Shown piece after piece: positions 913-58,965 of a DNA stretch of 64,000 bases. Position numbers and translations under genes: made by a program. Origin of the DNA: a virus (taxonomy: Duplodnaviria; Heunggongvirae; Uroviricota; Caudoviricetes); IMG/VR virus record IMGVR_UViG_3300042863_001217; one strand, written 5' to 3'. Every line of letters starts with the position of its first letter. The stretch's first letter is position 1. The notes under the pieces are model-generated. The model saw only the letters and a program-made list of their open reading frames with translations, made no database searches and was not told where the DNA came from.

Positions 913-2511
913 TTAGTTTCATCTCTCATAGTTAGTTCAAGTCTCTGGGAAAATTAGATTTTGGGAAAATTTCAGCTAGGGAAAACCCCACCAAACGCTT
1001 CACACCATTAGGTACCCACATGGTCGTTCCGACCCAAATCTAGGCCCTGCTTAGTTTCTGGCACACTACTAATACACATGGATGTGGTATCCCAATTTCT
1101 ATTCTGTACCAGTGATTGCTCTGGCCAACTCGCAGTTACTCTGATCCTCTTTAAATACCATTGGCGTGGACGTGTGACCATAGTAAGTCTTGGATAGTCG
1201 CTGGGGTTTTTGGCATTCTGCAGGGTCAGTCTTGGTCTAGGTCACTGATTAGTTATATGGCTCAGATCAAGTGTGTAAGACACATCACTCTGTGTACTCT
1301 CTTTTTTTTCGCTGGTCCTTAAGGTATTCTGGTTCTTTAAGTACTAAGACATTTTAAGTGTCTAAGTGTCTAAGTTAATCCTCTATGGTTTATCTGAGTA
1401 CTCTGAATGCTCTGATACCTGGAAGTCATTTCTTGTCGCGCGCGCTTCATGTCGATCGGGCCCTTGGAGCTTAGTCCCCCGGGGACCCAATTTTTTGGGA
1501 ACCGGCGACATTGAACAAGTCGCGATTCTGTCGGGCCTGTCTGGCTCTTGAGTACTCTTTGTTTTGGGGGTATACAATCGAGGGTCTGATCCGAGTCCTC
1601 TAAGTGGTTTGAGTTGTTTGGCGCCATGAATAGGCCCTGAAGCGCTGGCCCCGGGGCGAGATAGTTAACGCCCATAGTTGACAGTCGAAAATGCGCTATA
1701 GCTAATATAGTAAGTGAAGGTCCATACCTTAAAATCGGCGTTTAATCGCGAGACATGCGCAATGCGCTTTTTAAAACCATGAATGGATCATGAGTGCTTA
1801 GTGTCTTATATGCTCCATGTGTTATATTAGGCCTTTATATACTCTGAGGCTTATAGAGCTCTCATGTGTATATGCTATATGTGTATATGTTTATACCCTA
1901 TATGGTTAATTAGCTTTATTAGCTTTATTGCTCTATATGGCTTAATTAGCTTATTTGTCTTAATTGCGTACAGGCTAAGGCAGGTAAGCTCTGGCGTACT
2001 GTTGGTGCTCTAGGCTCTATAGAGCTCTGTAGCTCTCTGTCTCTCTACTGTTATTGGCTAATCAGCTGATACTGTTGGTGTGCTGGTGCTCTTGGTGTGT
2101 CTGTGCTCTCTGTAGTACCTATTAGCCTATTAGTCTATTGCTAATATTAGCTCTCTGGTGAATTATTAGTCCTCTGTAGATATTAGCGCTATATTTGCTT
2201 CCGGCGAGCGCTCTGGGAGCTTATTTGGACTTATTTAGCTCCTGGGAAGCTCCTGGTGACTATATTTAGCTCCCGGAGAGCTCCTGGGAAGCTTCCTGGG
2301 GCTTACTCTGGGGAAGCTCCTGGGGACTTACTCCTGGAAGCTTCCTGGGAGCGCTGCTGGCGCTAATCTTACCTCTGGCGTGAAATCCTACTTTATATGC
2401 TCCGGCGGGGCTTTTGTTTCAAAGTGATCTGGGTAGTCTGGGGTCCTTGCACGAAATGTTCGTAACTTTACTAAAAATAAGTGCTTAAATATTTTTTTAT
2501 TTGGATTATTA

Positions 2512-2548
2512 TGTGTATATTTACTCTATAATTAAAACACTAAACAAT
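2512..2548 (+). promoter_or_regulatory. Conserved promoter/leader module (GTGTATATTTACTCTATAATTAAAAC...) directly upstream of the ATG
   Basis: One of at least 7 near-identical copies in the plus cassette. Contains a TATAAT -10-like hexamer. The copy runs into the start codon ATGTCAAA. Confidence 0.45.
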
Positions 2549-3046
2549 ATGTCAAACATGATTTTTAACCAAGAGAAGATTAACCAAGTAGATTTTATTA
2601 ATGGCCGTACTGGTCAGTATAGAGCAGTAGTAAAAGTTAAAGCCGGTTTTATGACCGTAGTAGATGACTTAGGTATACAATGTAACTGGGCTTCAGGTGC
2701 CAGATGGAAGTCTGCCTTATCTGTATTCCAATCATTTAAACGTGGTGCTTTACAGACCATTGAATTTAAGGCTGATGGGTCTGACTCTTGGCTTACTGTC
2801 TTTGCCCGTAAAGGTAATAAGATCATGTTAATGGACACTGATATGTTCTTAACTATGACTGTCGGTGATATTAACCAAGACTGGTCTACCACTAACCTTT
2901 ATAGTCAAGCTAACTATAAGATGGCTGGAGCTAAGACATGGGCTGATAAAGCCTTTGTTAGTAATACTGTTACTATAGAGGAGTTAAATCCTATTATAGC
3001 TGGTGTTGACTTCTCTGAGTCTTTGGCTGCCTTAGCTGCTCTTTAA
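2549..3046 (+). CDS. Hypothetical early/accessory protein (start trimmed to MSNMIFNQ...)
   Basis: In-frame ATG immediately after the conserved leader module. The annotated upstream M would lie inside the promoter element. Confidence 0.5.
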   Translation: MSNMIFNQEKINQVDFINGRTGQYRAVVKVKAGFMTVVDDLGIQCNWASGARWKSALSVFQSFKRGALQTIEFKADGSDSWLTVFARKGNKIMLMDTDMFLTMTVGDINQDWSTTNLYSQANYKMAGAKTWADKAFVSNTVTIEELNPIIAGVDFSESLAALAAL

Positions 3047-3093
3047 GATGTTCGTAACTTTTATCAGTTACCTATGTTCCATGTCATTTAAAT

Positions 3094-3129
3094 TGTGTAT
3101 ATTTACTCTATAATTAAAACTTAAACAAT
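3094..3129 (+). promoter_or_regulatory. Conserved promoter/leader module
   Basis: TGTGTATATTTACTCTATAATTAAAACTTAAACAAT followed by ATGTCAAAA. Confidence 0.45.
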
Positions 3130-3525
3130 ATGTCAAAAATTAATCAATTCGATCGTCAGTCATTACGCGCACTTCGTGCAGATTTGGACTCAGCAATGGC
3201 TGCCATTGCAACTAAGTATGGTATTCAGTTAAATGCTGGTAATATCTCATTCACATCAGATACTGCTACTATTAAAGTGGCTGCTGGTATTATCAAGAAC
3301 GGTACAGCTGTTACTGCTGAAGCCAAAGCCTTTGATCAGTATAAGCGTATGGTAGGTCTGGGTCACTTAAGTGTTGGTGATAGCATTACTCTTCAAGGTA
3401 AAGCATATACCATCACTGGTTATAAGCCTCGCTCTAGTAAAGCGCCTGTATGTGTTGAACATCGTGGTCGTGGCTTTAAGGTGTCAGTTGACATGGTTAA
3501 GATGTACAACTCAGTGCCTGCCTAA
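3130..3525 (+). CDS. Hypothetical protein
   Basis: 131-aa ORF preceded by the conserved module and followed by a hairpin plus T-run. Confidence 0.5.
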   Translation: MSKINQFDRQSLRALRADLDSAMAAIATKYGIQLNAGNISFTSDTATIKVAAGIIKNGTAVTAEAKAFDQYKRMVGLGHLSVGDSITLQGKAYTITGYKPRSSKAPVCVEHRGRGFKVSVDMVKMYNSVPA

Positions 3526-3549
3526 CTGTTAATAACTTTTGTGAAAATA

Positions 3550-3582
3550 GGTTGACAATTGCTTTGGGTTGTCAACCTTTTC
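3550..3582 (+). terminator. Rho-independent terminator-like hairpin
   Basis: GGTTGACAA-ttgctttggg-TTGTCAACC followed by TTTT. Confidence 0.45.
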
Positions 3583-4010
3583 ACGTATATTTACATATGA
3601 ATTTAAAAATAAGACACATGAAGTAGATGCTTAAAAATCAAAAAAGAGGTAGCACCTCAACAAGGGTTCGCTTTTTTCTCGGAGCGCAGAGGGTAGACTC
3701 CGACCTACGTGACACCCCCTCCCTCGATAGTGGTCCAAATGTTCGTAACTTTTATGAAAATAAATGCGCAATTGTTTTGGGTTGTCATTTAAATCACGTA
3801 TATTTACTATGTAATTAAAAATAAGCTATATGACGTAGATGACTAAAAATTCAAAAAGGGATAAAATCCCAACAGGGGCGGTCCTTTCAAAAGAAGGAGG
3901 AAGAGTAGACTCCGACCTGCTTTATATTTTTTTTATAAAGGCTGTTCATAACTATGTTAATAACTTTATTGAATTATTTTTAGGGGCCTATGTCCGGTTA
4001 AAGAAATTTG

Positions 4011-4046
4011 TTGTATATTTACTGTATAATTAAAACACTAAAAGAT
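4011..4046 (+). promoter_or_regulatory. Conserved promoter/leader module
   Basis: TTGTATATTTACTGTATAATTAAAACACTAAAAGAT followed by ATGTCAAAC. Confidence 0.45.
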
Positions 4047-4364
4047 ATGTCAAACATCAAAGATCAAATTCAGTCATGGGTAGCTACCGAAGCTCAAGCT
4101 ACTATTAATAACTACTATACTAAGGCATTGCCTAGTTTGCGTGTTCCAGAGCTTACCGTTAAATTTGGACAGAAATATGCCCAAGTCTGGAATGGTACTA
4201 CTATATGGGCTTTTATTGCTTTAACTGATGAGGTTGCCAAAGCACAACGTGTAGGTGACTTATTGAAGCCTGCTTCGTGGAGGGCTCCAGCTAAACATAG
4301 TCGTGGTAACATTATTGAAGGTACCGCTGCTTATGGTCCTTATGGTCCAGAGTACATAAAATAA
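4047..4364 (+). CDS. Hypothetical protein (start trimmed to MSNIKDQ...)
   Basis: ATG directly after the leader module. 105 aa. Confidence 0.5.
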   Translation: MSNIKDQIQSWVATEAQATINNYYTKALPSLRVPELTVKFGQKYAQVWNGTTIWAFIALTDEVAKAQRVGDLLKPASWRAPAKHSRGNIIEGTAAYGPYGPEYIK

Positions 4365-4406
4365 TTTGAAAATACTTGTCTAAATATTTTTTTATGTCGA
4401 GTATTA

Positions 4407-4443
4407 TGTGTATATTAGCTTTATAATTAAAAACAAACAGATC
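4407..4443 (+). promoter_or_regulatory. Conserved promoter/leader module (variant)
   Basis: TGTGTATATTAGCTTTATAATTAAAAACAAACAGATC followed by ATG. Confidence 0.4.
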
Positions 4444-4821
4444 ATGCCTTATATTTCAAAAGAACAAGTTAAAGTAAAACGAGAAGCCCTTAAGAAAGCC
4501 TTACCTCAGTTTAAGATGTCTATTACTACTGATAACTATAGTGGTATTAAAGTGGCTATCATGAAAGGTCCAGTTGATTTCGGTATTGAGTATGCTCAGT
4601 TAAATGAGTATGCTGATTATCGCGAACCACGTTGGGACAGAGACACTGAACAATATGTGTCCAATCCAGCTATAGCTGACCTAATGGAGACTGTGATGCC
4701 TATCTTAAATGATGGTATGCGTGAAGGTCATGATGATAGTGATTATGGTCATATACCTGATTACTATACTTGGGTTCATATTGGTCAATGGGATAAAGCC
4801 TACGAGGTGGTTAATGCGTAA
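4444..4821 (+). CDS. Hypothetical protein (MPYISKEQ...)
   Basis: ORF beginning after the leader module. 125 aa. Confidence 0.5.
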   Translation: MPYISKEQVKVKREALKKALPQFKMSITTDNYSGIKVAIMKGPVDFGIEYAQLNEYADYREPRWDRDTEQYVSNPAIADLMETVMPILNDGMREGHDDSDYGHIPDYYTWVHIGQWDKAYEVVNA

Positions 4822-5155
4822 ACTTAAAAAGTCTGATGTTAATGCTGATACACTGATGAGGTGGTCTAATCGTAAGTTAGGTCCCTCTAGGTGCAAACGT
4901 ATATTGATTGTAGATCGTAAAAGCCCTGATTACGGTTGGTATGATTGGCATGGTACAGTCTACATCAATATACGCAATATTAGTTCTATGACTTCAGTAT
5001 ACAGAACTATGGCGCACGAATGGACTCATGCTCAACAAACATATGGTCGGTATAATGCCTATCATAAGAAGCATGGCTATAAAAACAATCCATATGAGGT
5101 TGCTGCCCGCCGGAGAGAAAGAACTTGCTTTAGTGAATTGTTCGTAACTTTATAG
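4814..5155 (+). CDS. Small HExxH protein, putative zinc metallopeptidase-like
   Basis: Start ATG overlaps the stop of the upstream gene (aATGcgTAA). Begins MRKLKKSD. Contains MAHEWTHAQQ (an HExxH motif). The C-terminal codons overlap the TTGTTCGTAACTTTATAG box. Confidence 0.35.
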   Translation: MRKLKKSDVNADTLMRWSNRKLGPSRCKRILIVDRKSPDYGWYDWHGTVYINIRNISSMTSVYRTMAHEWTHAQQTYGRYNAYHKKHGYKNNPYEVAARRRERTCFSELFVTL

Positions 5156-5194
5156 AAAATAATTCACAAAAAGCTTTGGGTTGTCGTTTATATC

Positions 5195-5230
5195 GTGTAT
5201 ATTTACTCTATAATTAAAACACTAACAGAT
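5195..5230 (+). promoter_or_regulatory. Conserved promoter/leader module
   Basis: CGTGTATATTTACTCTATAATTAAAACACTAACAGAT followed by ATGTCAAAA. Confidence 0.45.
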
Positions 5231-5533
5231 ATGTCAAAAGAAACAATTTTAGTCCACACTCAATTTTACGAAAACTACAACGTCGGTCCTGATGGATTCG
5301 GTGAAACTCCATCTTGGAAAGCCAAAGGTGGTCATACCTTCTCAATTGAGATGGATGCTGATCTTTTAATGTACTCTGACTCTAAGGCTATTTTTAGCAA
5401 AATGTTAGAGATGCATAACACTATTGCAGAGCGTTTTGAATATATAGAGTATGAAATTCAATGGTCTAAACCAAGTCTTCTTGGGTATCAGGCTGATTAT
5501 ATAGCAGCTAACGAGGCTTTACAAACAGCCTAA
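5231..5533 (+). CDS. Hypothetical protein (MSKETIL...)
   Basis: 100-aa ORF after the leader module. Confidence 0.5.
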   Translation: MSKETILVHTQFYENYNVGPDGFGETPSWKAKGGHTFSIEMDADLLMYSDSKAIFSKMLEMHNTIAERFEYIEYEIQWSKPSLLGYQADYIAANEALQTA

Positions 5534-5586
5534 TCTTTTTTTGAAACAATTCATAATTTAACCATATAAAAATAAAAACAAATCTT

Positions 5587-6738
5587 ATGTCAGCAATCGC
5601 AACATTATCATCAGCAGTTCTTGAAAATCGTAGAGCTGAAACACGTAACTCTCAGTCAATTCGTAAAACTGTATCAGTACGTGATATTAACCTTGTTAAC
5701 GATACAACTATCGAGTATCAAGGTAAACGTCTAGAGATTACATCAGACGCATTCAAGTCTCTTATGAAATTGATCGGTATGTCAGCAACCTTTGCTGCTA
5801 AGTTCGAATCTCTATTTAACCCTGAGACCAAAGCAAAATTCGTTAACCAAATGAAAAACGCTATGGCAGCTCAGTTGAATGAGATCACCATTATATTGTC
5901 TCCACAGACTAAGAAGGTAGTTGGTTTCTCTAAGAATGCAACAGACCTTATTTCTCACGAACGTTTCATTTCATTGGCTGATCAAATTATCGATCAACAT
6001 GGCTTTGAAGTTACCAATTGGGGTGTAGATGCTACTAAAGGTTCAGTTATTATCAATGCTTTTAATCCTAAGGCACAATTTGACCTTGCAGGTCTTGGTT
6101 TAGCCAATGAGGTTTTCACCGCTGGTGTTACTCTTAAGAATTCACCTTTCGGAGGTATACAAGTTATGCCTTATGTTAACAGAATGTTCTGTACGAATGG
6201 CTTAACTACAGGATTGGCTAGCGAATCTTATTCACTATCTAATTTAAATCCTGAATCGATGGAGAACTTTCACCAACATATGAGTCAATTGCGTAAGAAT
6301 GGATTTGTACCTACTAATTTTGCTGAAACTGTGAAATTGGCTACTCAAACTCCAGCTTCTCTATGGGAAATGGAACGTGCATATAGTTCAATCAAACCAA
6401 TGGTTGGCGCACAAGCTGACTCTTGGATCCCTTTGAATGATAACTACTCAGCGTATACTAAAGCAGGTATGATGCCAGAAGGTTTCTCAGCTGCTCAAAA
6501 GAAAAACGCACGTACTGATCAATCAATCTGGTCATTGGTAAATGGTATGACTCACGTCGCTACACATGCACCAGAACAATTAGCATTTAACATGACTGAT
6601 AGAGAATCTACAGACTTGATGGTTAAAGCTGGTGGTATCTTCGGTAAGCAATTTGATTTAGGTAACACAATTCGTTCACCTTTCAAAGCAGATGCTCACT
6701 TAGAGGCTGAAATGCAAGTAGGAGCTTTATTAAACTAA
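5587..6738 (+). CDS. Hypothetical protein, 383 aa
   Basis: Long ORF with no recognisable motif. Lacks the conserved leader module. Followed by a long structured 3' region and a terminator. Confidence 0.55.
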   Translation: MSAIATLSSAVLENRRAETRNSQSIRKTVSVRDINLVNDTTIEYQGKRLEITSDAFKSLMKLIGMSATFAAKFESLFNPETKAKFVNQMKNAMAAQLNEITIILSPQTKKVVGFSKNATDLISHERFISLADQIIDQHGFEVTNWGVDATKGSVIINAFNPKAQFDLAGLGLANEVFTAGVTLKNSPFGGIQVMPYVNRMFCTNGLTTGLASESYSLSNLNPESMENFHQHMSQLRKNGFVPTNFAETVKLATQTPASLWEMERAYSSIKPMVGAQADSWIPLNDNYSAYTKAGMMPEGFSAAQKKNARTDQSIWSLVNGMTHVATHAPEQLAFNMTDRESTDLMVKAGGIFGKQFDLGNTIRSPFKADAHLEAEMQVGALLN

Positions 6739-6883
6739 AAACTCGTAACCTCATCCAGATCACAGACAATCGAAACTGTAAAATGGAGCTGTTGAAGATG
6801 AGGTTACTATGAAAACTGGGAGTATGGTTAGAGCAGCGTAAATTCTAGATAGCATTAAGACTCACGACCTAAGTCCCTTCCAA

Positions 6884-6913
6884 GCCGGTACTACATGTAC
6901 CGGCTTTCTTTTT
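6884..6913 (+). terminator. Rho-independent terminator
   Basis: GCCGGTAC-tacat-GTACCGGC followed by TTTCTTTTT. Confidence 0.6.
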
Positions 6914-6994
6914 GCTCCAAAGGCTGCCATTGGTGAATTATTTTCGCTTTTTTATGAAAATAAACGCAAATAAGCTTTGGGTTGTCATTTATTA

Positions 6995-7031
6995 TGTGTA
7001 TATTTACCTTATAATTAAAACACTAACAGAT
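6995..7031 (+). promoter_or_regulatory. Conserved promoter/leader module
   Basis: TGTGTATATTTACCTTATAATTAAAACACTAACAGAT followed by ATG. Confidence 0.45.
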
Positions 7032-7226
7032 ATGAAAGTCACAGTCAACATTTTACCATTTTTAGGAGCCTTAGTTATGGGTTTCATTAGTTACTCTATT
7101 ATGCAAGGTACTGCTCAAGAAGTGGTTCATTTTGCGGGTGTATTAAACGAGATCTTCACATTGGTTATGGCCATGATGATGACCTTAGGTCTTTTGATAA
7201 TGTCAATCTCAAAGGCTGCCAAATAA
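7032..7226 (+). CDS. Small membrane protein (MKVTVNILPFLGALVMGF...)
   Basis: 64 aa with two hydrophobic segments. ATG sits directly after the leader module. Confidence 0.4.
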   Translation: MKVTVNILPFLGALVMGFISYSIMQGTAQEVVHFAGVLNEIFTLVMAMMMTLGLLIMSISKAAK

Positions 7227-7273
7227 ATTGTTCGTAACTTTTACCTAATTTATTTTGGGTTGTCAAATAAAAG

Positions 7274-7310
7274 TTGTATATTAGCTCTATAATTAAAAGT
7301 CAAACACTAT
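7274..7310 (+). promoter_or_regulatory. Conserved promoter/leader module (variant)
   Basis: TTGTATATTAGCTCTATAATTAAAAGTCAAACACTAT followed by ATGTCAAAA. Confidence 0.4.
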
Positions 7311-8453
7311 ATGTCAAAATCATCTTACACAATTCACAAATTAGAGGCTGTTCCTAATAAGAAGCCTAATTTCAATCTTAAAAATATTGCTGATTCCGAG
7401 GACCAAGTCCTGATCACAGCAGAAAATCCTAAGTATGCCTATGTAGCAGAAAATCAGGGTCGTATTATTAACATCAACGGAGTTATGGCTTCAGGTGTTT
7501 TAAAGATGACCTCATCAGCTGACTACTATGATGCTTATGGTCTTAAACAAAAAACCAAGGTTGAGGTAGCCGCACCTAAAGCAGCTCCACTTAAAATCTC
7601 ATTAACCAAGTTAGATGACCTTAATTTCTCTGACGAGTTATTTAACCCTCTAACTACTGGTTTGGCAATAGACCAATTCTTATCTAATGACGGTGGCTTT
7701 ATGCCAGGTTCAAACATCATGGCTGCAGGTGCACCGGGTGTAGGTAAGACTACAGTTCTTTTAGAAACCTTATACGCAGTACAAAAGCAAGATCCTACCA
7801 AGCGTGTGCTGTTCATCTCAGCTGAAATGAACCAATTGGACATGGCTAGATACCTAAAAAGATTCCCACATTGGGGTCAGTTACCAATCTTATTCTTAAG
7901 TGACTATGTTGACCAAGATCCTCAAGCCGTAATAGAGCAAACATTGCAACAAGGTTGGGACATAGTCTTAACAGATAGTTACACCGAGGTGAATGACACA
8001 GTTAAAGAAGCTTGTAACATGACCAGAGGTAAAACTGAAAAGTGGTTCTTGGACATGATGATTGCCAATAACCAAGGTAAGAACCAAACCAAGAAGTATA
8101 CTACCTTCATCACCATTTTACAGTTATCTAAGGGTGGTACATTCGTCGGGTCCAACAAACTAAAACACATGACCACAGCCATGCTAGAATTAAACTGGAA
8201 AGGCAATGAGAATTCAGCTGAGCGTTATATGGAATTCAGTAAGAACCGTTTAGGCCAAGTAGGTCATAAGTTATTCTTTGACTTTACAGACGGAGTTAGT
8301 TTTGACACCAAGAGATACAAGCGAGATCTACTTAACTTGGAATTAATTGAGGATGAGAGAGCTAAGCTGACATCAGAAGAGGATAGCTTTGACCGTCTTT
8401 TCGGTGCTATACCTAATGAAAGTGACTCCACCCCGGCGGTAGAAGTAAACTAA
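7311..8453 (+). CDS. RecA-fold P-loop ATPase, DnaB-like helicase domain
   Basis: Walker A motif GAPGVGKTT. Downstream VLFISAEM resembles DnaB motif H1a (SLEM). ILQLSKGG resembles DnaB motif H3. Confidence 0.5.
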   Translation: MSKSSYTIHKLEAVPNKKPNFNLKNIADSEDQVLITAENPKYAYVAENQGRIININGVMASGVLKMTSSADYYDAYGLKQKTKVEVAAPKAAPLKISLTKLDDLNFSDELFNPLTTGLAIDQFLSNDGGFMPGSNIMAAGAPGVGKTTVLLETLYAVQKQDPTKRVLFISAEMNQLDMARYLKRFPHWGQLPILFLSDYVDQDPQAVIEQTLQQGWDIVLTDSYTEVNDTVKEACNMTRGKTEKWFLDMMIANNQGKNQTKKYTTFITILQLSKGGTFVGSNKLKHMTTAMLELNWKGNENSAERYMEFSKNRLGQVGHKLFFDFTDGVSFDTKRYKRDLLNLELIEDERAKLTSEEDSFDRLFGAIPNESDSTPAVEVN

Positions 8454-9117
8454 TTGCTCATTGGGCTCAGTGGAGCTCTTCAAATAATATCCGACCCGGC
8501 GGAGACATAGCACCGGGGCTTTTAATTATATCATGGGAGGCTTTGACACCTCCGTGCCCACACCAGACCTGACTAGTTTGGTGTTGTGGGATCCAGGGAG
8601 CTGACAGGGCTGTGGGAGCCTCTGGAGTGTGTATGTGTTAGCGTTCGCGTTTGACTCATCTCCTGGCGCACCGCAACACCAATGAACGATACTAATAAGC
8701 GCTATATATCTGATCCCCTGGGGACCTTACTGGATACGAGTTCGTTTTAAATTGTGGGGTTTGGTATTCTTACCACTTTTTACCACTTTATACCACTAAA
8801 TACCATAACGGGGCTTAAAACCTTAAAAGGGCTTAAAAGAGACGCTAAGGCGCTCCATTGGTGGTGGGACCATTACCATTTTTGTCTATTGGTATATCTG
8901 GTCTTTATTGCCCATACTATATAAGGGATTGCTAGAAGGATTACTATGTATATCATATTGGTTTATCTGGTATCTGGGTTAGGGTTTGAGTTTATCCTTA
9001 TCCCTTTGGAATTATCTTATATCTATCTAGTCTATTAGGATATGGTGTTTATTGTGTTGGTAGCGCGCGTTTTGGTTATGCTGGTTTTGATGGAAATAAT
9101 TGGGTTGGGTTGCGTGC

Positions 9118-9147
9118 AAAAAAAAGACCTCTTAATTAGAGGCCTTC
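9118..9147 (-). terminator. Rho-independent terminator (minus strand)
   Basis: Minus strand reads AGGCCTCTAATTAAGAGGTCT followed by TTTTTTTT, just downstream of the stop at 9172. Confidence 0.55.
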
Positions 9148-9171
9148 TGTGTGTGTATTGTGTGTGTTTGA

Positions 9172-18295: not shown

Positions 18296-21016
18296 TTATG
18301 GTGCTATAGGATCTTCTTTTCTATTGTGTGTAATTATACCATTTGCTACGTATACATCATTAGACTCTACGTCTAATTTATAAACTTTAAATGATCCACT
18401 ATTTTTTACAATAGAAGTAATTAGATGTTCATATCCATCTTGATTAATAAATGAATCGCCAACTAAAATATCATTAGCTTTCATTACAGACCATACTGAA
18501 TTTCTTTTTATAATATGCACGTGATCTTCACTTGAAGTTAATAAACCATCATTAAAACTTAACACGCTATTTACAATGTGTTCAGTATTTTGAGTAACTG
18601 TAGCCGATGTATTAGATAAAGTTGGATTTGTTTGAGACCATTGTATTAAATTCTGATAATTATCTCCATCTGGCATATTACCTATTATCATTGAAGATAA
18701 TTCCATACCAATTGTTAACGATTCTATTGTAGCGTGAGTACCGTTTGATAATTTAACTAAAGTTCCTTCTAGTAAACATCCTCCTGGAGTTCCGGCACAT
18801 AATTCAAATATAGTATACTCAGGTGGTGTTGTATCAGGCTGAACTAATCTCCAACACGTTCCAGATGCATCGTCTACATATACTAATTGATCAAGATTAT
18901 ATAAATCACTATATGGTCCCACATACGAATATACACCTCCATCATTTCTTTCTGCTAACCATGATCTATATACAGTTGGAGTAGGTTTATCTGGTGTTGC
19001 TGTAGGATTTGGAATATATTCGCTGTAACTACATCCAAATTCACTTGTACATCCAATAGTTTGGTCAATTACGAAAATATCATCTGAAATTATAAATACC
19101 ATTTCTGATGAGTCCCATGTACTTGGCACTGAACTACTACATACTGAATATACTGCTCCAGATCTTCCATTATAATAATAAGGTGAAGCTAGCATTTCAT
19201 TAAATGTTCTTTGTATATAACTTCCAAAATTATAACCTAATCCATATCTAAATATGTCCACTGTATCAGCTACCCATACATGATAACATGTACCCGAAGG
19301 TGCATCAGTTGGTCTCGGAGTTGATGTCGGAGGAACTAAGGTCGGTTCTGGTATATATGTAGTTGGTGTTGGTGGAATCGGTGTTGCTGTTGGATAACCT
19401 GCACCTGCACCCGAAGATGAATAACATTGAGATCCAATTTGTGTTATAATAATATTTTGATAATATGCAATTGCTTTTACACATAAAACAACAGGTTGAG
19501 AATATGGTGTTAAATACACTGTATCACTTCTACCATCACACATTGTATATTGTATGTAACCACTATTCCAACTATCTGTTAATTGAAAATTATAAGTATA
19601 ACAAGGTACAGCTGTTGCTGTTGGTGGAATTGGCGTTGCCGTTGGTAGGTTTAACGAACTGTCAAGTATTCTTACATTAACTGTATCTAATACAATACTA
19701 CTAGCATTAGTAAGTTTTACAATCAACCATTCATCACCTTCTGTTAAATTATCAGATTTTGTGGTTAATTCAAATACACCTTGACCATTTACACCCGAAG
19801 TAGTAGTAATTACTACATAACCATTGTTGATAGCTTCAACCAAATCACTTGCATTTGCATTATATGGTCCTAATTCCCACCAAAGTGTTGTTGGTGATGC
19901 ATTTAAATATTGTGTGTCAACTACAAATGTAATTTTTACATTTTCTTCATTGACTTGTGTTTTATTAGCAGAAATACTATAAGTAGGTGGAAACCAATAC
20001 TCATCAGTTACATAACCAAGTACACTATCGTAGTATACAGCATATGCTGATCCTGCTTCATAATACCATCCACTGGGCGCTGTTTCACACGTAGCTATAT
20101 AACTATTGTCACATAAAGTTTGTATGCCAGAGATTAAGCCTGTGTTGATCCAGTTACCGTTACTATCAAATGTAACTTGATCGTATCTTCCAACTGGAGT
20201 AGTTGCAGTAGATAAGCCATAATAATAATTACCAGGATATGTTGATGCTAATGAACTTTGTACCATTAATTGTGCATCGTATGAATTACAAATACCTAAT
20301 AAATTATATTCAAAATAAGTTTGATCTGTTGAATTATTAACATCGTCATTTCCACCTGGAACATCATCAGTTATTAAAATAATAAGTTTAATTGCATCAG
20401 ATCTAAATGATCCTGCAATATTATTAGACAATATTTCATTGATCCCTAAACCACCGGGTTCTGGCGCACCTTGACCATATCCTAAAGGAAAACTAGGTGT
20501 AGCTAATAAATTAAGTTTTGTTTGAAAATCAGTAATTGAACCAACATTACCTAATGGTTGCATACATGTAATAAATTGAGTTCTATTATTAAATGTGTTT
20601 ATCACAGCTTTTTGTGATGCTGGTAAATTTAAGTATATAGATGTCTGTCCATAGTTGTTTGACGGTGGAGATGTTAGATTACCGGCATATTCATCAAATA
20701 TGCAAAGTCCTACTCTATAATTACCTAATGATTCACTATCGATAGTACTTAAAATATTAGCAATACCAGCTTTAACACCATTGATTGCACCGTCCATAGA
20801 TCCAGTATAGTCAACTAAAAATACTATATCTAACCCTGTAGTACATTGAGTTGGAATAGTTAATTTATTTTGGTTTATAGCTAGACCATTTGTAGAATAA
20901 GTCTTAAAAACATTTGAATTGTTAATATTATTAGGACTTAATGGATCATAAGCTAAACTTACAAAACTAGTCGGTGGTACACAAGATTGCCCATATGAGC
21001 TTACAGATAATGCCAT
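18296..21016 (-). CDS. vWA-domain protein with C-terminal Hint (Hedgehog/intein-like) domain and PT-rich linkers: 'Vint'-like structural/adhesin protein
   Basis: vWA MIDAS motifs DIVFLVDYTGSM and LIILITDDVPGG. C-terminal ~150-aa module starts GG|CLLEGTLV and ends ...ANGIITHN, then 8 more residues. Confidence 0.6.
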   Translation of the reverse strand: MALSVSSYGQSCVPPTSFVSLAYDPLSPNNINNSNVFKTYSTNGLAINQNKLTIPTQCTTGLDIVFLVDYTGSMDGAINGVKAGIANILSTIDSESLGNYRVGLCIFDEYAGNLTSPPSNNYGQTSIYLNLPASQKAVINTFNNRTQFITCMQPLGNVGSITDFQTKLNLLATPSFPLGYGQGAPEPGGLGINEILSNNIAGSFRSDAIKLIILITDDVPGGNDDVNNSTDQTYFEYNLLGICNSYDAQLMVQSSLASTYPGNYYYGLSTATTPVGRYDQVTFDSNGNWINTGLISGIQTLCDNSYIATCETAPSGWYYEAGSAYAVYYDSVLGYVTDEYWFPPTYSISANKTQVNEENVKITFVVDTQYLNASPTTLWWELGPYNANASDLVEAINNGYVVITTTSGVNGQGVFELTTKSDNLTEGDEWLIVKLTNASSIVLDTVNVRILDSSLNLPTATPIPPTATAVPCYTYNFQLTDSWNSGYIQYTMCDGRSDTVYLTPYSQPVVLCVKAIAYYQNIIITQIGSQCYSSSGAGAGYPTATPIPPTPTTYIPEPTLVPPTSTPRPTDAPSGTCYHVWVADTVDIFRYGLGYNFGSYIQRTFNEMLASPYYYNGRSGAVYSVCSSSVPSTWDSSEMVFIISDDIFVIDQTIGCTSEFGCSYSEYIPNPTATPDKPTPTVYRSWLAERNDGGVYSYVGPYSDLYNLDQLVYVDDASGTCWRLVQPDTTPPEYTIFELCAGTPGGCLLEGTLVKLSNGTHATIESLTIGMELSSMIIGNMPDGDNYQNLIQWSQTNPTLSNTSATVTQNTEHIVNSVLSFNDGLLTSSEDHVHIIKRNSVWSVMKANDILVGDSFINQDGYEHLITSIVKNSGSFKVYKLDVESNDVYVANGIITHNRKEDPIAP

Positions 21017-21029
21017 TATTTATTTTATT

Positions 21030-24000
21030 TTATTTCGGTGTACAATTTGAGTTAGTAAATATTGCAGTTACTGTAAATCCAACTCCATCGTAGTCTGATT
21101 GATTACCAGTAACATATACATATTTATTATCCCATAATTGAGCAGCGACATTATTGTATATGCTTTCTGCAAATTTAGTATTACTTGCATGATCCCAAAC
21201 TAATAATACTGATGCGGTTCCAGTTGCATCTACACCCCATAGAGTGTATCTAACTTCTTGTGTATTATCACTTACACCGTATGAAGACTCAATTCCAGTT
21301 AAAATCATACCTTCTAAAGCAAATGTATATGGTATTAATACAAATGATTTTTGAAGTGATTGATTTGTAATTTTTTCATCTCTTGGAGTTGCACAAATTG
21401 ATACATGTTCATAACATGATCCTATGCCCGCTTCTCCAGGTTGTCCAGGTTGTCCATTGATACCTGATGTACCATTTGTTCCTGAAGAACCATTTGTACC
21501 ATTTGTTCCTGAAGAACCATTAGTTCCAGATGTACCATTTGTACCATGTGTTCCTGAAGTTCCATTAGTACCACTTGTACCATCTCTACCAGAAGAACCG
21601 CTTGTACCATCTTTACCTGAAGTTCCATTAGTACCACTCGTACCATTTAAACCAGAAGTACCATTAGTTCCTGATGTTCCATTAGTTCCATTAATTCCTG
21701 AAGAACCATTAGTTCCAGATGTACCATTAGTACCACTTGTACCATTAGTTCCAGATGTACCATTAATACCGCTTGAACCGCTTGTACCATCTCTACCTGA
21801 AGAACCATTTGTACCAGAAGTACCATTAGTTCCTGAAGAACCATTAGTTCCTGATGTTCCATTAGTTCCAGATGTACCATTAGTACCATGTGTTCCTGAA
21901 GTTCCATTAGTTCCAGAAGTTCCATTAGTACCGCTTGTACCATTAGAACCATTTATTCCTGAAGATCCATTAGTTCCTGAAGTTCCACGCTCACCGTTTG
22001 TACCACTAGTTCCATTTGTACCTGAAGAACCATTAGTTCCTGAAGTACCATTTGCGCCAGATGTACCATTAGTTCCTGAAGAACCATTAGTACCACTTGT
22101 ACCGTTAGTTCCATGTGTTCCTGAAGAACCATTAGTTCCTGATGTTCCATTAGTTCCTGATGTTCCATTAGTACCACTTGTTCCATTAGTTCCATTAGTT
22201 CCTGAAGTTCCACGCTCTCCGTTTGTACCACTAGTACCATTTAAACCAGATGTTCCATTAGTTCCTGAAGAACCATTAGTACCACTAGTACCATTAATTC
22301 CAGAAGAACCACTAGTACCATTAATTCCAGAAGAACCATTTGCACCTGAAGTTCCATTTATACCATCTCTACCTGAAGAACCATCTGTACCTGAAGTTCC
22401 ACGCTCTCCGTTTATACCATCAGTTCCACTTGTTCCATTTATACCACTAGTACCATTAGTTCCAGAAGTTCCGTTAGTTCCTGAAGTTCCGTTAGTTCCA
22501 TGTGTACCTGAAGTACCATTAGTTCCAGAAGTTCCGTTAGTTCCACTTGTTCCATTTGCACCTGAAGTTCCGTTAGTACCATCTCTACCTGAAGAACCAT
22601 TTGTACCACTAGTACCATTAGTTCCTGAAGTTCCGTTAGTTCCACTTGTTCCATTTGCACCTGAAGTTCCGTTAGTTCCATGTGTACCTGAAGTTCCGTT
22701 AGTTCCAGAAGAACCATTAGTTCCTGAAGATCCATTTGTTCCAGAAGAACCATTAGTACCTGATGTACCACGTTCTCCATTTATACCACTTGAACCATCA
22801 GTTCCAGAAGTTCCATCTAATCCATTACGACCATCAATACCACTAGTTCCATTAGTTCCAGAAGTTCCATTTATACCGCTTGTGCCATTTGAACCATTAG
22901 TACCACTAGTTCCATTTGTTCCAGAAGAACCATTAGTTCCATTTGTTCCAGAAGAACCATTAGTACCAGATGTACCATTAGTTCCACTAGTTCCATTTGT
23001 TCCAGAAGAACCATTAGTTCCTGAAGTTCCATTTGAACCATTAGTACCACTCGTACCGTTTGTTCCAGAAGAACCATTAGTTCCTGATGTACCATTAGCA
23101 CCGCTTGTGCCATTTGAACCATTTAAACCCGATGTACCATTAGTTCCAGAAGAACCATTAGTTCCAGAAGTTCCAGTATCACCTTTAGCGCCTGAAGTTC
23201 CATTAGTACCAGATGTACCATTAGTTCCAGAAGAACCATTAGTTCCTGAAGAACCATCAGCACCATCAAATCCAGATGTACCATTATTACCATTAGTTCC
23301 TGAAGTTCCGTTAGTTCCTGAAGTTCCGTGTGATCCATCCATTCCACTAGTACCATTAATACCAGAAGATCCATCATTACCTCTTGAACCTGAAGTTCCA
23401 TCAGTTCCATTTGAACCTGAAGTTCCATTAGTTCCTGAAGTTCCATTAGTTCCTGAAGAACCATTAGTTCCTGAAGTTCCATCAGATCCATTTGTACCAT
23501 TTGTTCCATTTGTTCCAGAAGATCCATCAGAACCATTAGTTCCATTAGTTCCATTTGTTCCAGAAGAACCATTAGTTCCATTTGTTCCAGAAGAACCGCT
23601 TGTTCCAGGATTTCCAGTTACACCGCTTGTTCCATTTGTTCCATTTGTTCCAGAAGAACCATTTGTTCCAGAAGAACCATTAGTTCCTGAAGAACCATTT
23701 GTTCCTGAAGAACCATTAGATCCATTTGTTCCAGATGTACCATTAGAACCCGCAGGTCCTTCAGTTGCACCTAAAGATGAAACTATATGTGAATAATTTG
23801 AAACGCCTTCTGTATAAAATTTAATAGTTCTATTTTGATTATCATCGTTAATAGCATAAATTTGAACTAATACTTTATCAGTAGGACTTATATAATGTTG
23901 TTCTAAAAATAAGTCTTGATATACATCCACTGGAATTGCAGTAGAAGTGTCCCATCCTATTAATGTAGGTGTAGTTGTTCCCCACACAGCAATTGGTATT

Positions 24001-24914
24001 CCACCTGCATCTGTACGAGTAACCTTAACATATACTTGAATAGCATGTGAATCTACTTCTTTAGTGAAGTGCATTAAAAATGATTGAATACCAGCAGATA
24101 CTACTGCAACACCTAATCCAACTGGAGTTATAAATTGAGTAACTAATACATCTGATTGCAACGGAGTTAAATCAGTAGTTACTATTTGTTGTACACTAGA
24201 TACTGGGATTGGTGAAATTTCATTAAGATCATTTGCACCGCCACCATTATTAACTACAGTAACTGATTCATTCATATAGAATATTTGACCAGTGCTATAA
24301 CCTGCTTCTCCTTGTAAACCATTAACTCCACTTGAACCTGAAGTTCCATCAATTCCTGATGTACCATTAGTACCACTTGTTCCATCAATTCCAGAAGTAC
24401 CATTAGTACCATCTAAACCGTTTAAACTAACTTCTACCCATGGATCATTACCATTAGTTGAAGATGGTGTATATAATTGTGGTAAAAATGTTGGAGGTCC
24501 ACCTATAACATTTGTGTATATTTGTGTACTATTAGGTTTTAAAAGACCTGCGCGAACCCATTGTGGTAACGCTTGCCATTCAGTATCACCTAAAACACCA
24601 TTATTGCCCCAATATCCTTTAGGTATTAAGACATAAAATTTATTTTCTTCAATGACATAAACTAGCATACCAACTGATCGAATACCCGTTGTATATCCAC
24701 CATCGTTTGAAACTGTAAAACCAATATGTGTAACTGGTGCAGGTGCTTCACCCCAAATAGGTAAGGCATTTCTTTCTTCAATTGTAAATACCTTTTGATA
24801 CCCACCCTTTACATGTTGTGCATGTACAATTCCTTCATAAGGACTTAATGATGAACTTGGCGAAATAAAATTACCAAAGGCGTATTGTGTTGAAACTGGT
24901 CTAGTAAATCCCAT
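21030..24914 (-). CDS. Collagen-like repeat protein (virion fibre candidate), 1294 aa
   Basis: Several hundred residues of uninterrupted G-X-Y triplets (GTNGTSGTNGSSG...), flanked by non-collagenous N- and C-terminal domains. Confidence 0.7.
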   Translation of the reverse strand: MGFTRPVSTQYAFGNFISPSSSLSPYEGIVHAQHVKGGYQKVFTIEERNALPIWGEAPAPVTHIGFTVSNDGGYTTGIRSVGMLVYVIEENKFYVLIPKGYWGNNGVLGDTEWQALPQWVRAGLLKPNSTQIYTNVIGGPPTFLPQLYTPSSTNGNDPWVEVSLNGLDGTNGTSGIDGTSGTNGTSGIDGTSGSSGVNGLQGEAGYSTGQIFYMNESVTVVNNGGGANDLNEISPIPVSSVQQIVTTDLTPLQSDVLVTQFITPVGLGVAVVSAGIQSFLMHFTKEVDSHAIQVYVKVTRTDAGGIPIAVWGTTTPTLIGWDTSTAIPVDVYQDLFLEQHYISPTDKVLVQIYAINDDNQNRTIKFYTEGVSNYSHIVSSLGATEGPAGSNGTSGTNGSNGSSGTNGSSGTNGSSGTNGSSGTNGTNGTSGVTGNPGTSGSSGTNGTNGSSGTNGTNGTNGSDGSSGTNGTNGTNGSDGTSGTNGSSGTNGTSGTNGTSGSNGTDGTSGSRGNDGSSGINGTSGMDGSHGTSGTNGTSGTNGNNGTSGFDGADGSSGTNGSSGTNGTSGTNGTSGAKGDTGTSGTNGSSGTNGTSGLNGSNGTSGANGTSGTNGSSGTNGTSGTNGSNGTSGTNGSSGTNGTSGTNGTSGTNGSSGTNGTNGSSGTNGTSGTNGSNGTSGINGTSGTNGTSGIDGRNGLDGTSGTDGSSGINGERGTSGTNGSSGTNGSSGTNGSSGTNGTSGTHGTNGTSGANGTSGTNGTSGTNGTSGTNGSSGRDGTNGTSGANGTSGTNGTSGTNGTSGTHGTNGTSGTNGTSGTNGTSGINGTSGTDGINGERGTSGTDGSSGRDGINGTSGANGSSGINGTSGSSGINGTSGTNGSSGTNGTSGLNGTSGTNGERGTSGTNGTNGTSGTNGTSGTNGTSGTNGSSGTHGTNGTSGTNGSSGTNGTSGANGTSGTNGSSGTNGTSGTNGERGTSGTNGSSGINGSNGTSGTNGTSGTNGTSGTHGTNGTSGTNGTSGTNGSSGTNGTSGTNGSSGRDGTSGSSGINGTSGTNGTSGTNGTSGTNGSSGINGTNGTSGTNGTSGLNGTSGTNGTSGKDGTSGSSGRDGTSGTNGTSGTHGTNGTSGTNGSSGTNGTNGSSGTNGTSGINGQPGQPGEAGIGSCYEHVSICATPRDEKITNQSLQKSFVLIPYTFALEGMILTGIESSYGVSDNTQEVRYTLWGVDATGTASVLLVWDHASNTKFAESIYNNVAAQLWDNKYVYVTGNQSDYDGVGFTVTAIFTNSNCTPK
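21434..23760 (-). repeat. Tandem 9-bp-unit DNA repeats encoding collagen G-X-Y triplets
   Basis: Low-complexity periodic DNA. Produces artefactual ORFs on the opposite strand. Confidence 0.7.
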
Positions 24915-33649: not shown

Positions 33650-34615
33650 TTAGTTAATATACATATTCAATTCAAATTTATCGTTTCCTCTATTATAAAT
33701 TTGAACATGTAAAGATTTCTTTTGTTCCTTATCGTTTTTAAAAAGTGTTAAGGTATCTTTTTTGGTTTTACCATCATTTGGTTTAAAGAATGCATCTATA
33801 TAAGCATCACCGTATTCTTTAGGATCTAATGTATATCCTTGAGAATTAGCATATATTTCAACTGCATTAATAGCTGAGGAATAGAGATTGTGATAAACTG
33901 GATAGTCATCTTTCTTCTCATTAACTACGCTTTCTTTTAAACCTAATTCTTTGTGTAATACTGACATGAATGGTCCAAAATTATGTGTACCGTATTCATC
34001 GATCAATACCTTAGCAACTGCTAATGCAAAATCAGTGTATGACAAAGAGTCATCAATTTTAATAATTGCTGAATCAATTCCTTTTGCTAATGCATCAGAA
34101 TTTTTAGATTCACTAATATAAACGAATTTATCGCCTTTGAATGCTTTATTTAAATCTTTAAGTAAATCTTCTGGTCCAGTGTGTTCTGCTGTTGAAAACC
34201 ATTTACCTCTGTATTGAAAATCTCCATCATAATCAACTTTAACCATACCATCATCTGAGAATATAAATGCATTTTCATCATCTTCCCAATCAACTGTGAT
34301 TTTCTTTTCTTTAATACCATCAACACCATCCATTGCATCATGAACTGCGTTTAGATTGTCCACCGCTCCAGTGATTTGAGAAAACATCCAAGATTCTAAT
34401 TTTTGACCGCCTTTCATGCGATCTCCGATCATTTCAGCATAATCTTCAATTCTTTCTAATTGACCTAAAGTCATATTATTTAATTCAGTAAGAGTATCAC
34501 CTTCTTCAGTAATTGATTTTTCTGACATATAAAATGCAGCATACTGTTCTCTTGACATATTCTGCTGAGAAGCAGCAATATTTAGATAATCGTCGAATAA
34601 TTTAACTATTTTCAT
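33650..34615 (-). CDS. Degenerate leader-family protein (MKIVKLFDDYLN...)
   Basis: Internal KESVVNEKK motif. Confidence 0.5.
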   Translation of the reverse strand: MKIVKLFDDYLNIAASQQNMSREQYAAFYMSEKSITEEGDTLTELNNMTLGQLERIEDYAEMIGDRMKGGQKLESWMFSQITGAVDNLNAVHDAMDGVDGIKEKKITVDWEDDENAFIFSDDGMVKVDYDGDFQYRGKWFSTAEHTGPEDLLKDLNKAFKGDKFVYISESKNSDALAKGIDSAIIKIDDSLSYTDFALAVAKVLIDEYGTHNFGPFMSVLHKELGLKESVVNEKKDDYPVYHNLYSSAINAVEIYANSQGYTLDPKEYGDAYIDAFFKPNDGKTKKDTLTLFKNDKEQKKSLHVQIYNRGNDKFELNMYIN

Positions 34616-36740: not shown

Positions 36741-36879
36741 AGTTTTAAATTTAATTGGTTAATATTGTTAATGTACACGAAAAAAACGACATAAAAAACT
36801 ATTTATCGTTTATTTTCAATTTATTCATACTATTTATATGAAAGCTTCTAATTTTGTTTTAATTATAGAGCTAATATAC

Positions 36880-36920
36880 AAAAAAAAGCCCAAACTAAAA
36901 AATTTGGGCTTAATTATTTT
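36880..36920 (-). terminator. Terminator hairpin (GCCCAAA...TTTGGGC) plus T-run. Copy 1 of a repeated ~60-bp element
   Basis: A near-identical element recurs at 58786-58850, each time followed by the AAAAGTT(A/G)CGAACAATT box. Confidence 0.55.
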
Positions 36921-36939
36921 CATAAAAGTTGCGAACAAT

Positions 36940-58535: not shown

Positions 58536-58785
58536 TTTTAATTGTTTTTAATTGTTATAGGGTAAATATACATATAATTTTCGACATAAAAAAATATATT
58601 TTAATAAAGTTACGAACAATCTTTCTTTTTATGTTTGTCTTTACGAAAATACTTCTTTTTATTACGATAAGGCGCAGGCACTTTAAGAGCATCAAACCAT
58701 TCCTGTAATGTTATGTTAATTTTTTCTAATTTGATTTTTTTAGTCTCTTTCATGATCTACTGTTTTAATTATAAGGCTAATATAC

Positions 58786-58817
58786 TAAAAAAAGCCCAAA
58801 CTAAAAAATCTGGGCTT
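58786..58817 (-). terminator. Terminator hairpin. Copy 2 of the repeated ~60-bp element
   Basis: AGCCCAGA-ttttttag-TTTGGGCT plus T-run on the minus strand, downstream of the tRNA. Confidence 0.5.
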
Positions 58818-58891
58818 AACTATTTTTAAAAAAGTTACGAACAATTGCATATTAAACCAAAAAGACCCATCGAATGATGAGTCTTCTTTAG

Positions 58892-58965
58892 TGGAGGTGA
58901 CAGGAATCGAACCTGCGACCCTCTGCGTGCAAGGCAGATGCTCTAGCCAACTGAGCTACACCCCC
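58892..58965 (-). tRNA. tRNA-Ala: tRNA-Ala (anticodon UGC)
   Basis: Manual fold: acceptor stem GGGGGTG/CACCTCC with the G3:U70 alanine identity pair, D-arm GCTCAGTTGGCTAGAGC, anticodon loop CTTGCAC, T-arm GCAGGTTCGATTCCTGT, discriminator A. CCA is not encoded. Confidence 0.85.

Follow-up and report, generated by a model that had tools for sequence, protein, structure and literature searches.

What is gained by placing almost the same sequence in front of one small gene after another? The question is raised by a cassette of small genes, approximately 6 kb long, in a 64,000-nucleotide stretch of tailed-phage DNA (Caudoviricetes; IMG/VR virus record IMGVR_UViG_3300042863_001217) that is referred to here, at its full length, as the window. 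The cassette is the sole plus-strand coding block, the rest of the window being coded on the minus strand, and it is bracketed by two more G+C-rich regions (913-2450 and 8454-9171) that are devoid of open reading frames (ORFs); on both counts a strand map of the ORFs bears out a first-pass annotation that had been made from the letters alone. The answer that we consider likely is that the repeated module is a strong promoter for host RNA polymerase (RNAP) with a Bacteroidota-type primary σ, fused to a short, A-rich leader that is free of Shine-Dalgarno (SD) sequence, and that its copies double as recombination substrates. Transcription and translation signals of the Bacteroidota differ from those of model bacteria and, to our knowledge, almost nothing is known about how phages of the Bacteroidota program their early gene expression.

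The repeated module

Allowing at most one mismatch, the core of the module (TATATT-N5-TRTAATTAAAA) has 10 matches in the window, where shuffled sequence would lead one to expect 0.05; the 24-mer of the first-pass annotation has 5, where 0 would be expected. A repeat search and a fuzzy scan place nine plus-strand copies in the cassette, with cores starting at 2516, 3098, 3586, 3799, 4014, 4411, 5198, 6999 and 7277. Seven genes follow a module (ATG at 2549, 3130, 4047, 4444, 5231, 7032 and 7311), in agreement with the "at least seven" originally claimed; the copies at 3586 and 3799 have no ORF after them and lead instead into two paralogous non-coding units of ~135 nt, A and B. One cassette gene, encoding 383 amino acids (5587-6738), is without a module. 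The genes concerned are indeed small and mostly uncharacterized, and their coding sequences do tend to open alike: ATG-TCA begins six of the nine genes of the cassette, but only 4 of the 45 others in the window.

Other parts of the original description have to be revised. The module is not specific to the cassette, since three further copies lie elsewhere, on the minus strand (at 36878, 58784 and 58570), at a much lower density (three in 58 kb as against nine in 6 kb); it would appear to constitute a genome-wide and, as recounted below, lineage-wide class of promoter that is concentrated in the cassette. It is also 80-105 nt long rather than ~35 nt. Its parts, from 5' to 3', are an E element, an A-rich block (GAAAATAA, often present downstream of E), a T-run or TTTG, TGTCAA and, 10 nt further on, TATATTTAC or TATATTAGC, then NN-TATAATTAAAAC, with the ATG ~10 nt later. 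The region upstream of the core had been called variable. That is so only in part: it holds the T-run or TTTG, the TGTCAA, the GAAAATAA block and the E element (TGTTCGTAACTTT). Some modules (module 3 of the cassette and the copies at 36937 and 58843) include a terminator-like stem-loop. An anatomy of this kind fits the promoter-plus-leader nature that had been proposed for the repeats. Nine such units in a row would provide each small gene and two small RNAs with a transcription start of its own, presumably for immediate expression after DNA entry.

A probable Bacteroidota-type promoter joined to a leader

The primary σ of the Bacteroidota, σA (σABfr), uses promoters with TTTG at -33 and TAnnTTTG at -7 (PMC6847099, PMC9723704). 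The -7 box, which in Flavobacterium spans -12 to -5 (PMC9723704), has nearly invariant T-12, A-11, T-8, T-7, T-6 and G-5, and no G at -10/-9; transcription starts 4-5 nt after it, and AT-rich tracts lie at -18 and -28 (PMC6847099). How closely does the module conform? The box forms found in the window, TATATTTA and TATATTAG, each have five of the six nearly invariant bases and no G at -10/-9, while TATATTTG, the box of Chryseobacterium phage MA9V-2 (discussed below) and of one copy in a relative of the window phage, L076, has all six. TTTG is placed exactly 19 nt upstream of the box in modules 3, 4, 7, 8 and 9; TTTT occupies the -33 place in modules 1 and 6, and modules 2 and 5 lack it. The consensus of 108 modules has a run of T at the -33 position. 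TTTG or TTTT would, accordingly placed, be the -33 element and TATATTTA or TATATTAG, 19 nt downstream, the -7 box (TAnnTTTG, -12 to -5).

Transcription is then predicted to start 4 nt past the box, at the purine that is the second base of 'T(A/G)TAAT'; the transcript would open AUAAUUAAAAC and reach its AUG after 20-22 nt. The sole base of 'TATAAT' that varies among relatives is precisely this A/G at the predicted +1, which follows an invariant T and fits a pyrimidine-purine start, not a σ70 -10 hexamer. It is thus more likely that the TATAAT singled out in the first-pass annotation marks the transcription start and the leader than that it serves as a -10 box.

The leader has its own logic. 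In F. johnsoniae, A at -3, -6, -12 and -13 favors translation (PMC6847099). The predicted 20-22-nt leader, AUAAUUAAAACACUAACAGAU, has A at -6, -12 and -13, where adenines would favor initiation in Flavobacteria, and A or G at -3; adenines at these positions would account for the almost constant spacing between TAATTAAAA and the ATG. Absence of SD sequences is a hallmark of the Bacteroidota (PMC6847099). The modules do lack them, as had been noted, but this is a trait of the entire window, in which an SD-like sequence precedes only 2 of the 45 minus-strand genes; upstream of the window's genes, A accounts for 60-69% of bases at positions -9 to -14. Consensus fit and distribution together argue for a host-polymerase promoter fused to an optimized SD-less leader.

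The upstream E element

The outermost part of the module, E (TGTTCGTAACTT; variants TGTTAATAAC and TGTTCGCAAC), is half-palindromic, GTT-N3-AAC. Eight copies of TGTTCGTAACTTT are present in the window (0.19 expected); all belong to modules, where the element immediately follows the preceding stop codon. In a larger collection, described below, 183 of 304 modules have E ahead of the box, seven of them in inverted orientation. Its start is found only at 38, 48-49, 57-60 or 68-69 nt from the -7 box, with no intermediate values (74 sequence-distinct spacers, less than 75% identical to one another), and the periodicity is best at 10.3-10.5 nt. The same quantized distances recur with quite unlike spacers (containing a terminator hairpin, the GAAAATAA block, or neither), and in MA9V-2 the module preceding the sigma-factor gene has TGTTAATAACTT at 48 nt.

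Indifference to orientation and helical phasing point to a dimeric protein bound to DNA on one face of the helix, rather than to a signal in RNA; the spacing of E, in other words, suggests a bound protein. Such a protein could be an activator or a shut-off repressor, and encoded by host or phage; no obvious helix-turn-helix protein is encoded in the window's cassette. The possibility that E is an integron attC site was considered and rejected: no integrase is present, every gene is served by a promoter of its own, and the halves of E abut.

Modules in other phages and in bacterial genomes

The exact pattern GTATATTTACNNTATAATTAAAA is present in 73 IMG/VR stretches. Pooling yielded 108 unique modules from 80 loci and, later, 304 from 129 metagenomic loci, with the consensus TTTT(t/g)..T.TCAA-N10-TATATT-N5-T(A/G)TAATTAAAA and the ATG mostly 14-16 nt after TRTAAT. 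These homologous modules precede replication-type and small genes, not structural genes. We have found no description of the module in the literature.

Cultured phages with the module were reached through a weak blastn match. MA9V-2 has T4-like gene content and two sigma-like genes; no RNA polymerase gene is annotated. It has ~17 modules of the form ...AAAATAGTTGC..TTTTCATATGTCAA-N10-TATATTTGTATTATAAT, which precede the genes for its topoisomerase II subunits, DNA ligase and sigma factor, as well as small ORFs, while 15 structural or large genes that were checked have TATAAATA or GTACATA-type motifs instead. Five window proteins compared with MA9V-2 gave no match; a module common to two phages without detectable kinship argues for shared host machinery. 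Flavobacterium phage vB_FspM_immuto_2-6A (MW353175; L081 in our collection) has at least 15 tandem small genes, each following TATATTTAGGTATCAATAATTAAAAC-N9-ATG; the array (65590-73635) consists of near-identical AAAATAGTTGC...TATATTTAGGTATCAATAATTAAAAC modules, some of which have a GC-rich hairpin between the two blocks.

The exact 23-mer was also found in 4 of 185,579 species genomes, all of the Bacteroidota/Ignavibacteria group; in three of the four a start codon follows it at a distance of 9-16 nt, one such gene being that for the Era GTPase. This taxonomic restriction and this placement are suggestive.

Relatives and modular exchange

With the ATPase gene at the end of the cassette (7311-8453) as query, 5 IMG/VR loci were found on contigs of 35-256 kb, four of them at least 140 kb, together with 228 metagenome loci, mostly marine and estuarine, on contigs of up to 173 kb. 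Contig sizes in this range point to a family of jumbo phages to which the window phage would belong. A 484-kb uncultured phage whose ATPase is 35% identical yielded no such modules in our search. The cassette had no megablast match among 50,697 phage records, and a tblastn search of phage records with four large proteins of the window brought up nothing but an intein, and no T4-like phage, so that the window phage has no close relative among these cultured phages. Pfam and PHROG scans of 49 window ORFs identified sugar and LPS enzymes, lysins, nucleases and a collagen-like fiber; in these 64 kb of the genome no T4-like core gene was found, and the scans give no grounds for counting the window phage as a T4-like myovirus. 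Nor, among the same ORFs, was a sigma factor or RNA polymerase domain found, although a phage-encoded one had been suggested as something to look for.

T4-like phages shuffle genes at repeated early promoters, the promoter-early stem-loops or PeSLs (PMC2839356, PMC4122927), and the cassette had been likened to these hotspots from the start. Five relatives with ATPases 58-69% identical to that of the window (L075-L079) keep the 165-aa, 100-aa, 383-aa, 64-aa and ATPase genes, but differ from one another in the genes between these; the order and strand of the genes also vary, as does the set of genes that have a module. Two closer relatives, L091 and L093, are ~85-94% identical to the window in DNA (the ATPase of L091 is 99% identical to that of the window) and permit individual events to be discerned. 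In place of the two small-RNA units of the window, A and B, L091 has unit B preceded by the core of module 4, to which the upstream half of module 3 is fused; L093 has one unit, a chimera whose promoter and 5' part are of type A and whose body is of type B. Exactly at the E element of module 7, L091 carries an insertion that consists of an extra module and a 45-aa zinc-ribbon ORF. A further ORF of L091, for an 82-aa helix-turn-helix-like protein, is flanked by AAAGGCTGCCA repeats and lies beyond the terminator that ends at 6906, upstream of module 8. (These small ORFs of L091, which the window lacks, lie at 2692-2859 and 4725-4973 and encode a CxxC...CxxC zinc-ribbon peptide and the helix-turn-helix-like protein; the latter is a candidate regulator.) In L093, a different, canonical module precedes the 105-aa gene, whose protein product is 93% identical.

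Alignment to related genomes thus reveals loss of a unit, a chimera, module-bounded insertions and the swapping of one whole module; the insertions and deletions that set L091 and L093 apart from the window end in modules, as the proposal of a PeSL-like exchange hotspot would have it. Near-identical copies would serve as substrates for homologous recombination, by which 'module + gene' units could be added, removed, duplicated and reshuffled, and the modules themselves homogenized. At variable core positions, identity is 0.80 within genomes and 0.55 between genomes, and many genomes have a single 'house' variant of the core in all their copies. Homogenization of the core within genomes implies gene conversion among copies or co-evolution with a factor.

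Alternative explanations

Is a host polymerase really the one to be served? Jumbo phages that encode their own RNAP have a conserved AT-rich motif of ~10 nt near -10 before early operons (PMC7598289), and the module might analogously be the promoter of a phage RNA polymerase, whether a multisubunit enzyme packaged in the virion, like those of phiKZ and AR9, or one with a single subunit, making the early cassette independent of host σ. The 140-256-kb contigs of the relatives are of jumbo size, and a ~22-nt core that is nearly identical within a genome, with genome-specific variants, recalls the promoter families of T7-type polymerases. We nevertheless regard this explanation as distinctly unlikely: the module fits the host-type -33/-7 consensus, spacing included; the exact core stands before chromosomal genes of Bacteroidota and Ignavibacteria; no RNA polymerase domain was found in the 49 window ORFs scanned; and the same design is used by the T4-like MA9V-2, with no RNA polymerase annotated, where it precedes that phage's own sigma-factor gene. 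A promoter of the σ70 type, with TATAAT as its -10 hexamer and a weak or variable -35, was the original assignment; it would place the start ~7 nt downstream and give a leader of ~9 nt, and we attach little probability to it. TATAAT is perfect in seven of the nine cassette copies, and two modules match TTGACA-N16-TATAAT at 10 of 12 positions, but these two are the only ones to do so when TTGACA and TATAAT are sought at a separation of 16-18 nt; most copies have no -35 hexamer at that distance, and the conserved TGTCA is 22 nt from TATAAT. An adenine at the second (-11) position of a σ70 -10 hexamer is essential. Many relatives have TGTAAT in place of TATAAT, which puts G at just that position, and TATAAT is therefore probably not a -10 hexamer. 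σ70-like sites in the region number 22, no more than in shuffled sequence (24.6), the invariant TATATT block is left unexplained, and the lack of SD sequences and the cultured relatives point to Bacteroidota, whose primary σ does not use TTGACA/TATAAT (PMC6847099).

The repeats might also, in principle, be recombination or mobility sequences before all else (miniature mobile elements or site-specific sites) and have no role as promoters. End-points of rearrangements coincide with modules and with the half-palindromic E, and copies are homogenized within genomes. Yet every copy faces a start codon or a small RNA downstream, at a tightly peaked distance; target-site duplications and terminal inverted repeats are absent; the cassette has no recombinase or transposase; and the same design is placed before essential replication genes in MA9V-2. 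We consider this very improbable.

The host-σA promoter is not without its own difficulties. In most copies in the window, the last base of the -7 box is A instead of the nearly invariant G, and the conservation of TATAATTAAAAC and TGTCAA exceeds what contacts with σA should need. The modules are related by descent, so the copies that define the spacing of E are not fully independent samples, and we estimate that the four bacterial matches to the 23-mer are only modestly above chance for AT-rich sequence. House variants of the core are also what a phage-specific polymerase or factor would produce, and the 64 kb seen may belong to a genome of more than 200 kb, with room for a phage polymerase or sigma gene elsewhere. 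That the host is one of the Bacteroidota is deduced from sequence features and from similar cultured phages; promoter activity, start site, early timing and the binding protein are likewise all inferred. These reservations are taken into account when we call the host-σA promoter likely.

Candidate small RNAs and a conserved non-coding element

Two of the nine modules appear to drive not genes but structured RNAs. For units A and B, at 3598-3737 and 3811-3945 respectively, homologues were found in at least 10 other loci. Their two hairpins keep pairing through five or six helix sequences (among them GAGGU/ACCUC, GGGAU/AUCCC, GGAGC/GCUCC and GGCC/GGCC), and a 12-nt motif, AGAG(G)GURGACUC, is conserved. 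The hairpins are seen when the segments of each homologue are folded separately; they were missed when RNAalifold was applied to MAFFT alignments of the small RNA, because alignment by sequence puts the arms out of register. The non-coding units and the flanks were also searched against Rfam, at the gathering threshold or with E up to 1, and gave only chance matches to microRNAs and leaders. Might units A and B instead be ORFs of 63-64 codons? This was rejected: the ORFs run through the next module, L078 is without the ORF, and hairpin arms change in compensatory fashion while the peptide changes radically.

A further element, at 6739-6912, is 97% identical to its counterpart in L093, has a folding-energy z-score of -2.9, and has a 5' hairpin that covaries in L077 and L078. 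Blocks that are invariant in distant relatives are GGGAGTATG, AGAGCA, TAAGACTCA and CTAAGTCCCT. GACUC(C/AC)GACCU is common to this element and the two small-RNA units.

One can speculate about a circuit that would connect these observations. Phased E elements and module-driven structured RNAs may together make up a hitherto undescribed early regulatory circuit common to many phages of Bacteroidota, in which a dimeric protein of host or phage origin would switch the regulon from one face of the helix, and the conserved RNAs with GACUC(C/AC)GACCU, each made at once from an early promoter of its own, would act on a host target, for example as decoys against RNA- or tRNA-directed defense. In its entirety the scheme is rather unlikely to be correct.

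Layout of the cassette

All the features of the cassette are on the plus strand. Module 1 (2457-2548; E 2457-2469; -7 box and core 2516-2537) has its predicted start near 2528, by the rule that places the -7 box at -12 to -5 (PMC9723704), and a leader that extends to the ATG at 2549 of the 165-aa gene (group 0; 2549-3046), which is kept in all relatives examined and has no family match. Module 2 (3049-3129; core 3098-3119; predicted start near 3110), with its E (3049-3061) 49 nt before the -7 box, precedes a 131-aa gene (3130-3525) that is variable and found in closer relatives only. Module 3 (3527-3608) has a variant E, TGTTAATAACTTT (3527-3539), a 9-bp stem-loop (arms 3550-3558 and 3569-3577) followed by a T-run, and a degenerate core from 3586; it leads into unit A, with its two hairpins and conserved AGAGGGUAGACUCC. 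Module 4 (3740-3820; E 3740-3752), whose core (3799-3820) is of the TGTAAT form, leads into the paralogous unit B, which ends 3' in an AU-rich hairpin with a U-run. Module 5 (3943-4046), the one replaced in L093, has two degenerate copies of E (3943-3967) and a core at 4014-4035, and is followed by the 105-aa gene (4047-4364).

Module 6 (4348-4443; core 4411-4432, of the TATATTAG form) is without E and serves a pair of overlapping genes (4444-5155) that encode 125 aa (4444-4821) and 113 aa (4814-5155). Module 7 (5139-5230; E 5139-5151; core 5198-5219), with TTTG 19 nt before its -7 box, precedes the 100-aa gene (5231-5533), after which come the 383-aa gene and the non-coding element, the latter ending with a hairpin like that of an intrinsic terminator (6882-6906); the 100-aa and 383-aa genes are conserved in relatives. 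So is the gene for a 64-aa hydrophobic protein (7032-7226), which follows module 8 (6936-7031; core 6999-7020). Module 9 (7229-7310; core 7277-7298), with E (7229-7241) 48 nt before the -7 box, precedes the gene for the 380-aa RecA/KaiC/DnaB-C-like P-loop ATPase that is the anchor for finding relatives.

The three minus-strand modules lie outside the cassette. The one at 36857-36937 is complete, with stem-loop as well as promoter: E is followed by a GC-rich terminator hairpin and then by the core; the one at 58763-58843 also has E, terminator hairpin and core; and the third, at 58549-58618, has E 48 nt before a degenerate core. A tRNA-Ala(UGC) gene (58891-58965, minus strand) is immediately upstream of the second of these modules.

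Family matches in the cassette are weak: DUF7717 for the gene at 4047, LPD29 for that at 4444, a HEWTH metallopeptidase-like domain for that at 4814, and the RecA/KaiC/DnaB-C-like ATPase at 7311. With matches as weak as these, an anti-defense role for the cassette genes is unproven; four of the nine are without a family match, and content varies among relatives. Third-position G+C content (GC3) is 0.33 in cassette genes and 0.17 elsewhere in the window, with the same bias, relative to flanking genes, in L075-L079; raised GC3 is a stable compositional signature of the cassette, constant in six genomes. The notion that its higher G+C content marks the cassette as a separate mobile element or satellite was discarded: conservation and synteny of the cassette extend to all relatives, and neither an integrase nor a replication-initiator signature is present in it.

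Other features of the window

The flanks of the cassette are dense in short degenerate tandem repeats (e.g., AGCTCCTGGGA, TTACCACTTT, GGGCTTAAAA) and include an imperfect 34-nt inverted repeat (2266-2366); two islands (1201-1350 and 1651-1800) share 93-95% identity with L093. An origin, arrays of binding sites and long non-coding RNAs are possibilities for the role of these flanks.

Eight otherwise different minus-strand proteins share the decapeptide MK(H/K/Y/I)(I/V)KLF(E/D)(Q/E/D)(F/Y), at the start of ORFs beginning at 34615, 32589, 35844, 29664, 11903, 11344 and 10565 and, in one case, internally (9438); an 811-aa protein and a zeta-toxin-like kinase are among them. Conservation is at the level of protein, since the upstream DNA is not conserved and codons vary synonymously, and the decapeptide may be a targeting or packaging signal. 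A 906-aa protein (18296-21016, minus strand) has an intein-splicing-like C-terminal segment and, as its sole phage match, the intein protein of phage NCTB; the adjoining gene (21030-24914, minus strand) encodes a 1294-aa tail-fiber-like protein with collagen repeats.

Implications and comparison with known systems

A module conserved in three or more groups of phages of Flavobacteriia, of which two are cultured, offers a concrete and testable consensus of early promoter and leader, with which early genes could be annotated in the phages of Bacteroidota that abound in marine and fresh waters, and may be a strong portable expression element for Flavobacteria. The phased E element hints at a regulator, and the promoter-driven small RNAs are candidates for phage-host interference. 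The idea of the PeSL is also extended, beyond T4-like phages and σ70 promoters.

Set beside the σA promoters of the Bacteroidota, the module is alike in its box and the absence of G at -10/-9, in the 19-nt spacing to TTTG or a T-run, in AT-rich tracts one and two helical turns upstream, in the purine 4 nt past the box, and in a leader of ~21 nt with A at -6, -12 and -13 and no SD sequence. It differs in that the box in the window usually ends in A, and in having ~20 conserved positions beyond the cellular consensus (TGTCAA, TATAATTAAAAC, GAAAATAA and the E element). With the early promoters of the RNAP-encoding jumbo phages phiKZ and AR9 (PMC7598289, PMC5312081) it has in common the jumbo setting and a conserved AT-rich motif, detectable by bioinformatics, before presumed early operons. 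Unlike them it matches the host consensus, is shared with the T4-like MA9V-2, and comes from a window in which no polymerase gene was found.

The closest comparison is with the PeSLs of T4-like phages. Both consist of many near-identical copies of a host-type early promoter, a predicted one in the case of the module, before small, mostly unknown genes; both are concentrated in a plastic region, with a terminator stem-loop before some copies; and both are associated with motif-bounded insertions, deletions and replacements between close genomes. The differences are considerable. The promoter of the module is of the Bacteroidota -33/-7 type, not TTGACA-N17-TATAAT. The stem-loop is present in one of the nine cassette modules and absent or degenerate in the other eight, although many relatives have it. 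The module also includes a conserved SD-less leader and a phased upstream element, and two of the units would drive small RNAs. No T4-like core gene was found in the window, although the analogous modules of MA9V-2 do sit in a T4-like genome. Other features of a PeSL are found here: a host primary-σ consensus, clustering in a variable region next to small genes without known relatives, and rearrangements bounded by the motif. On this analysis the array of modules is best regarded as the Bacteroidota analogue of the T4 PeSL cassettes, rather than as a strict member of the T4-like PeSL family.

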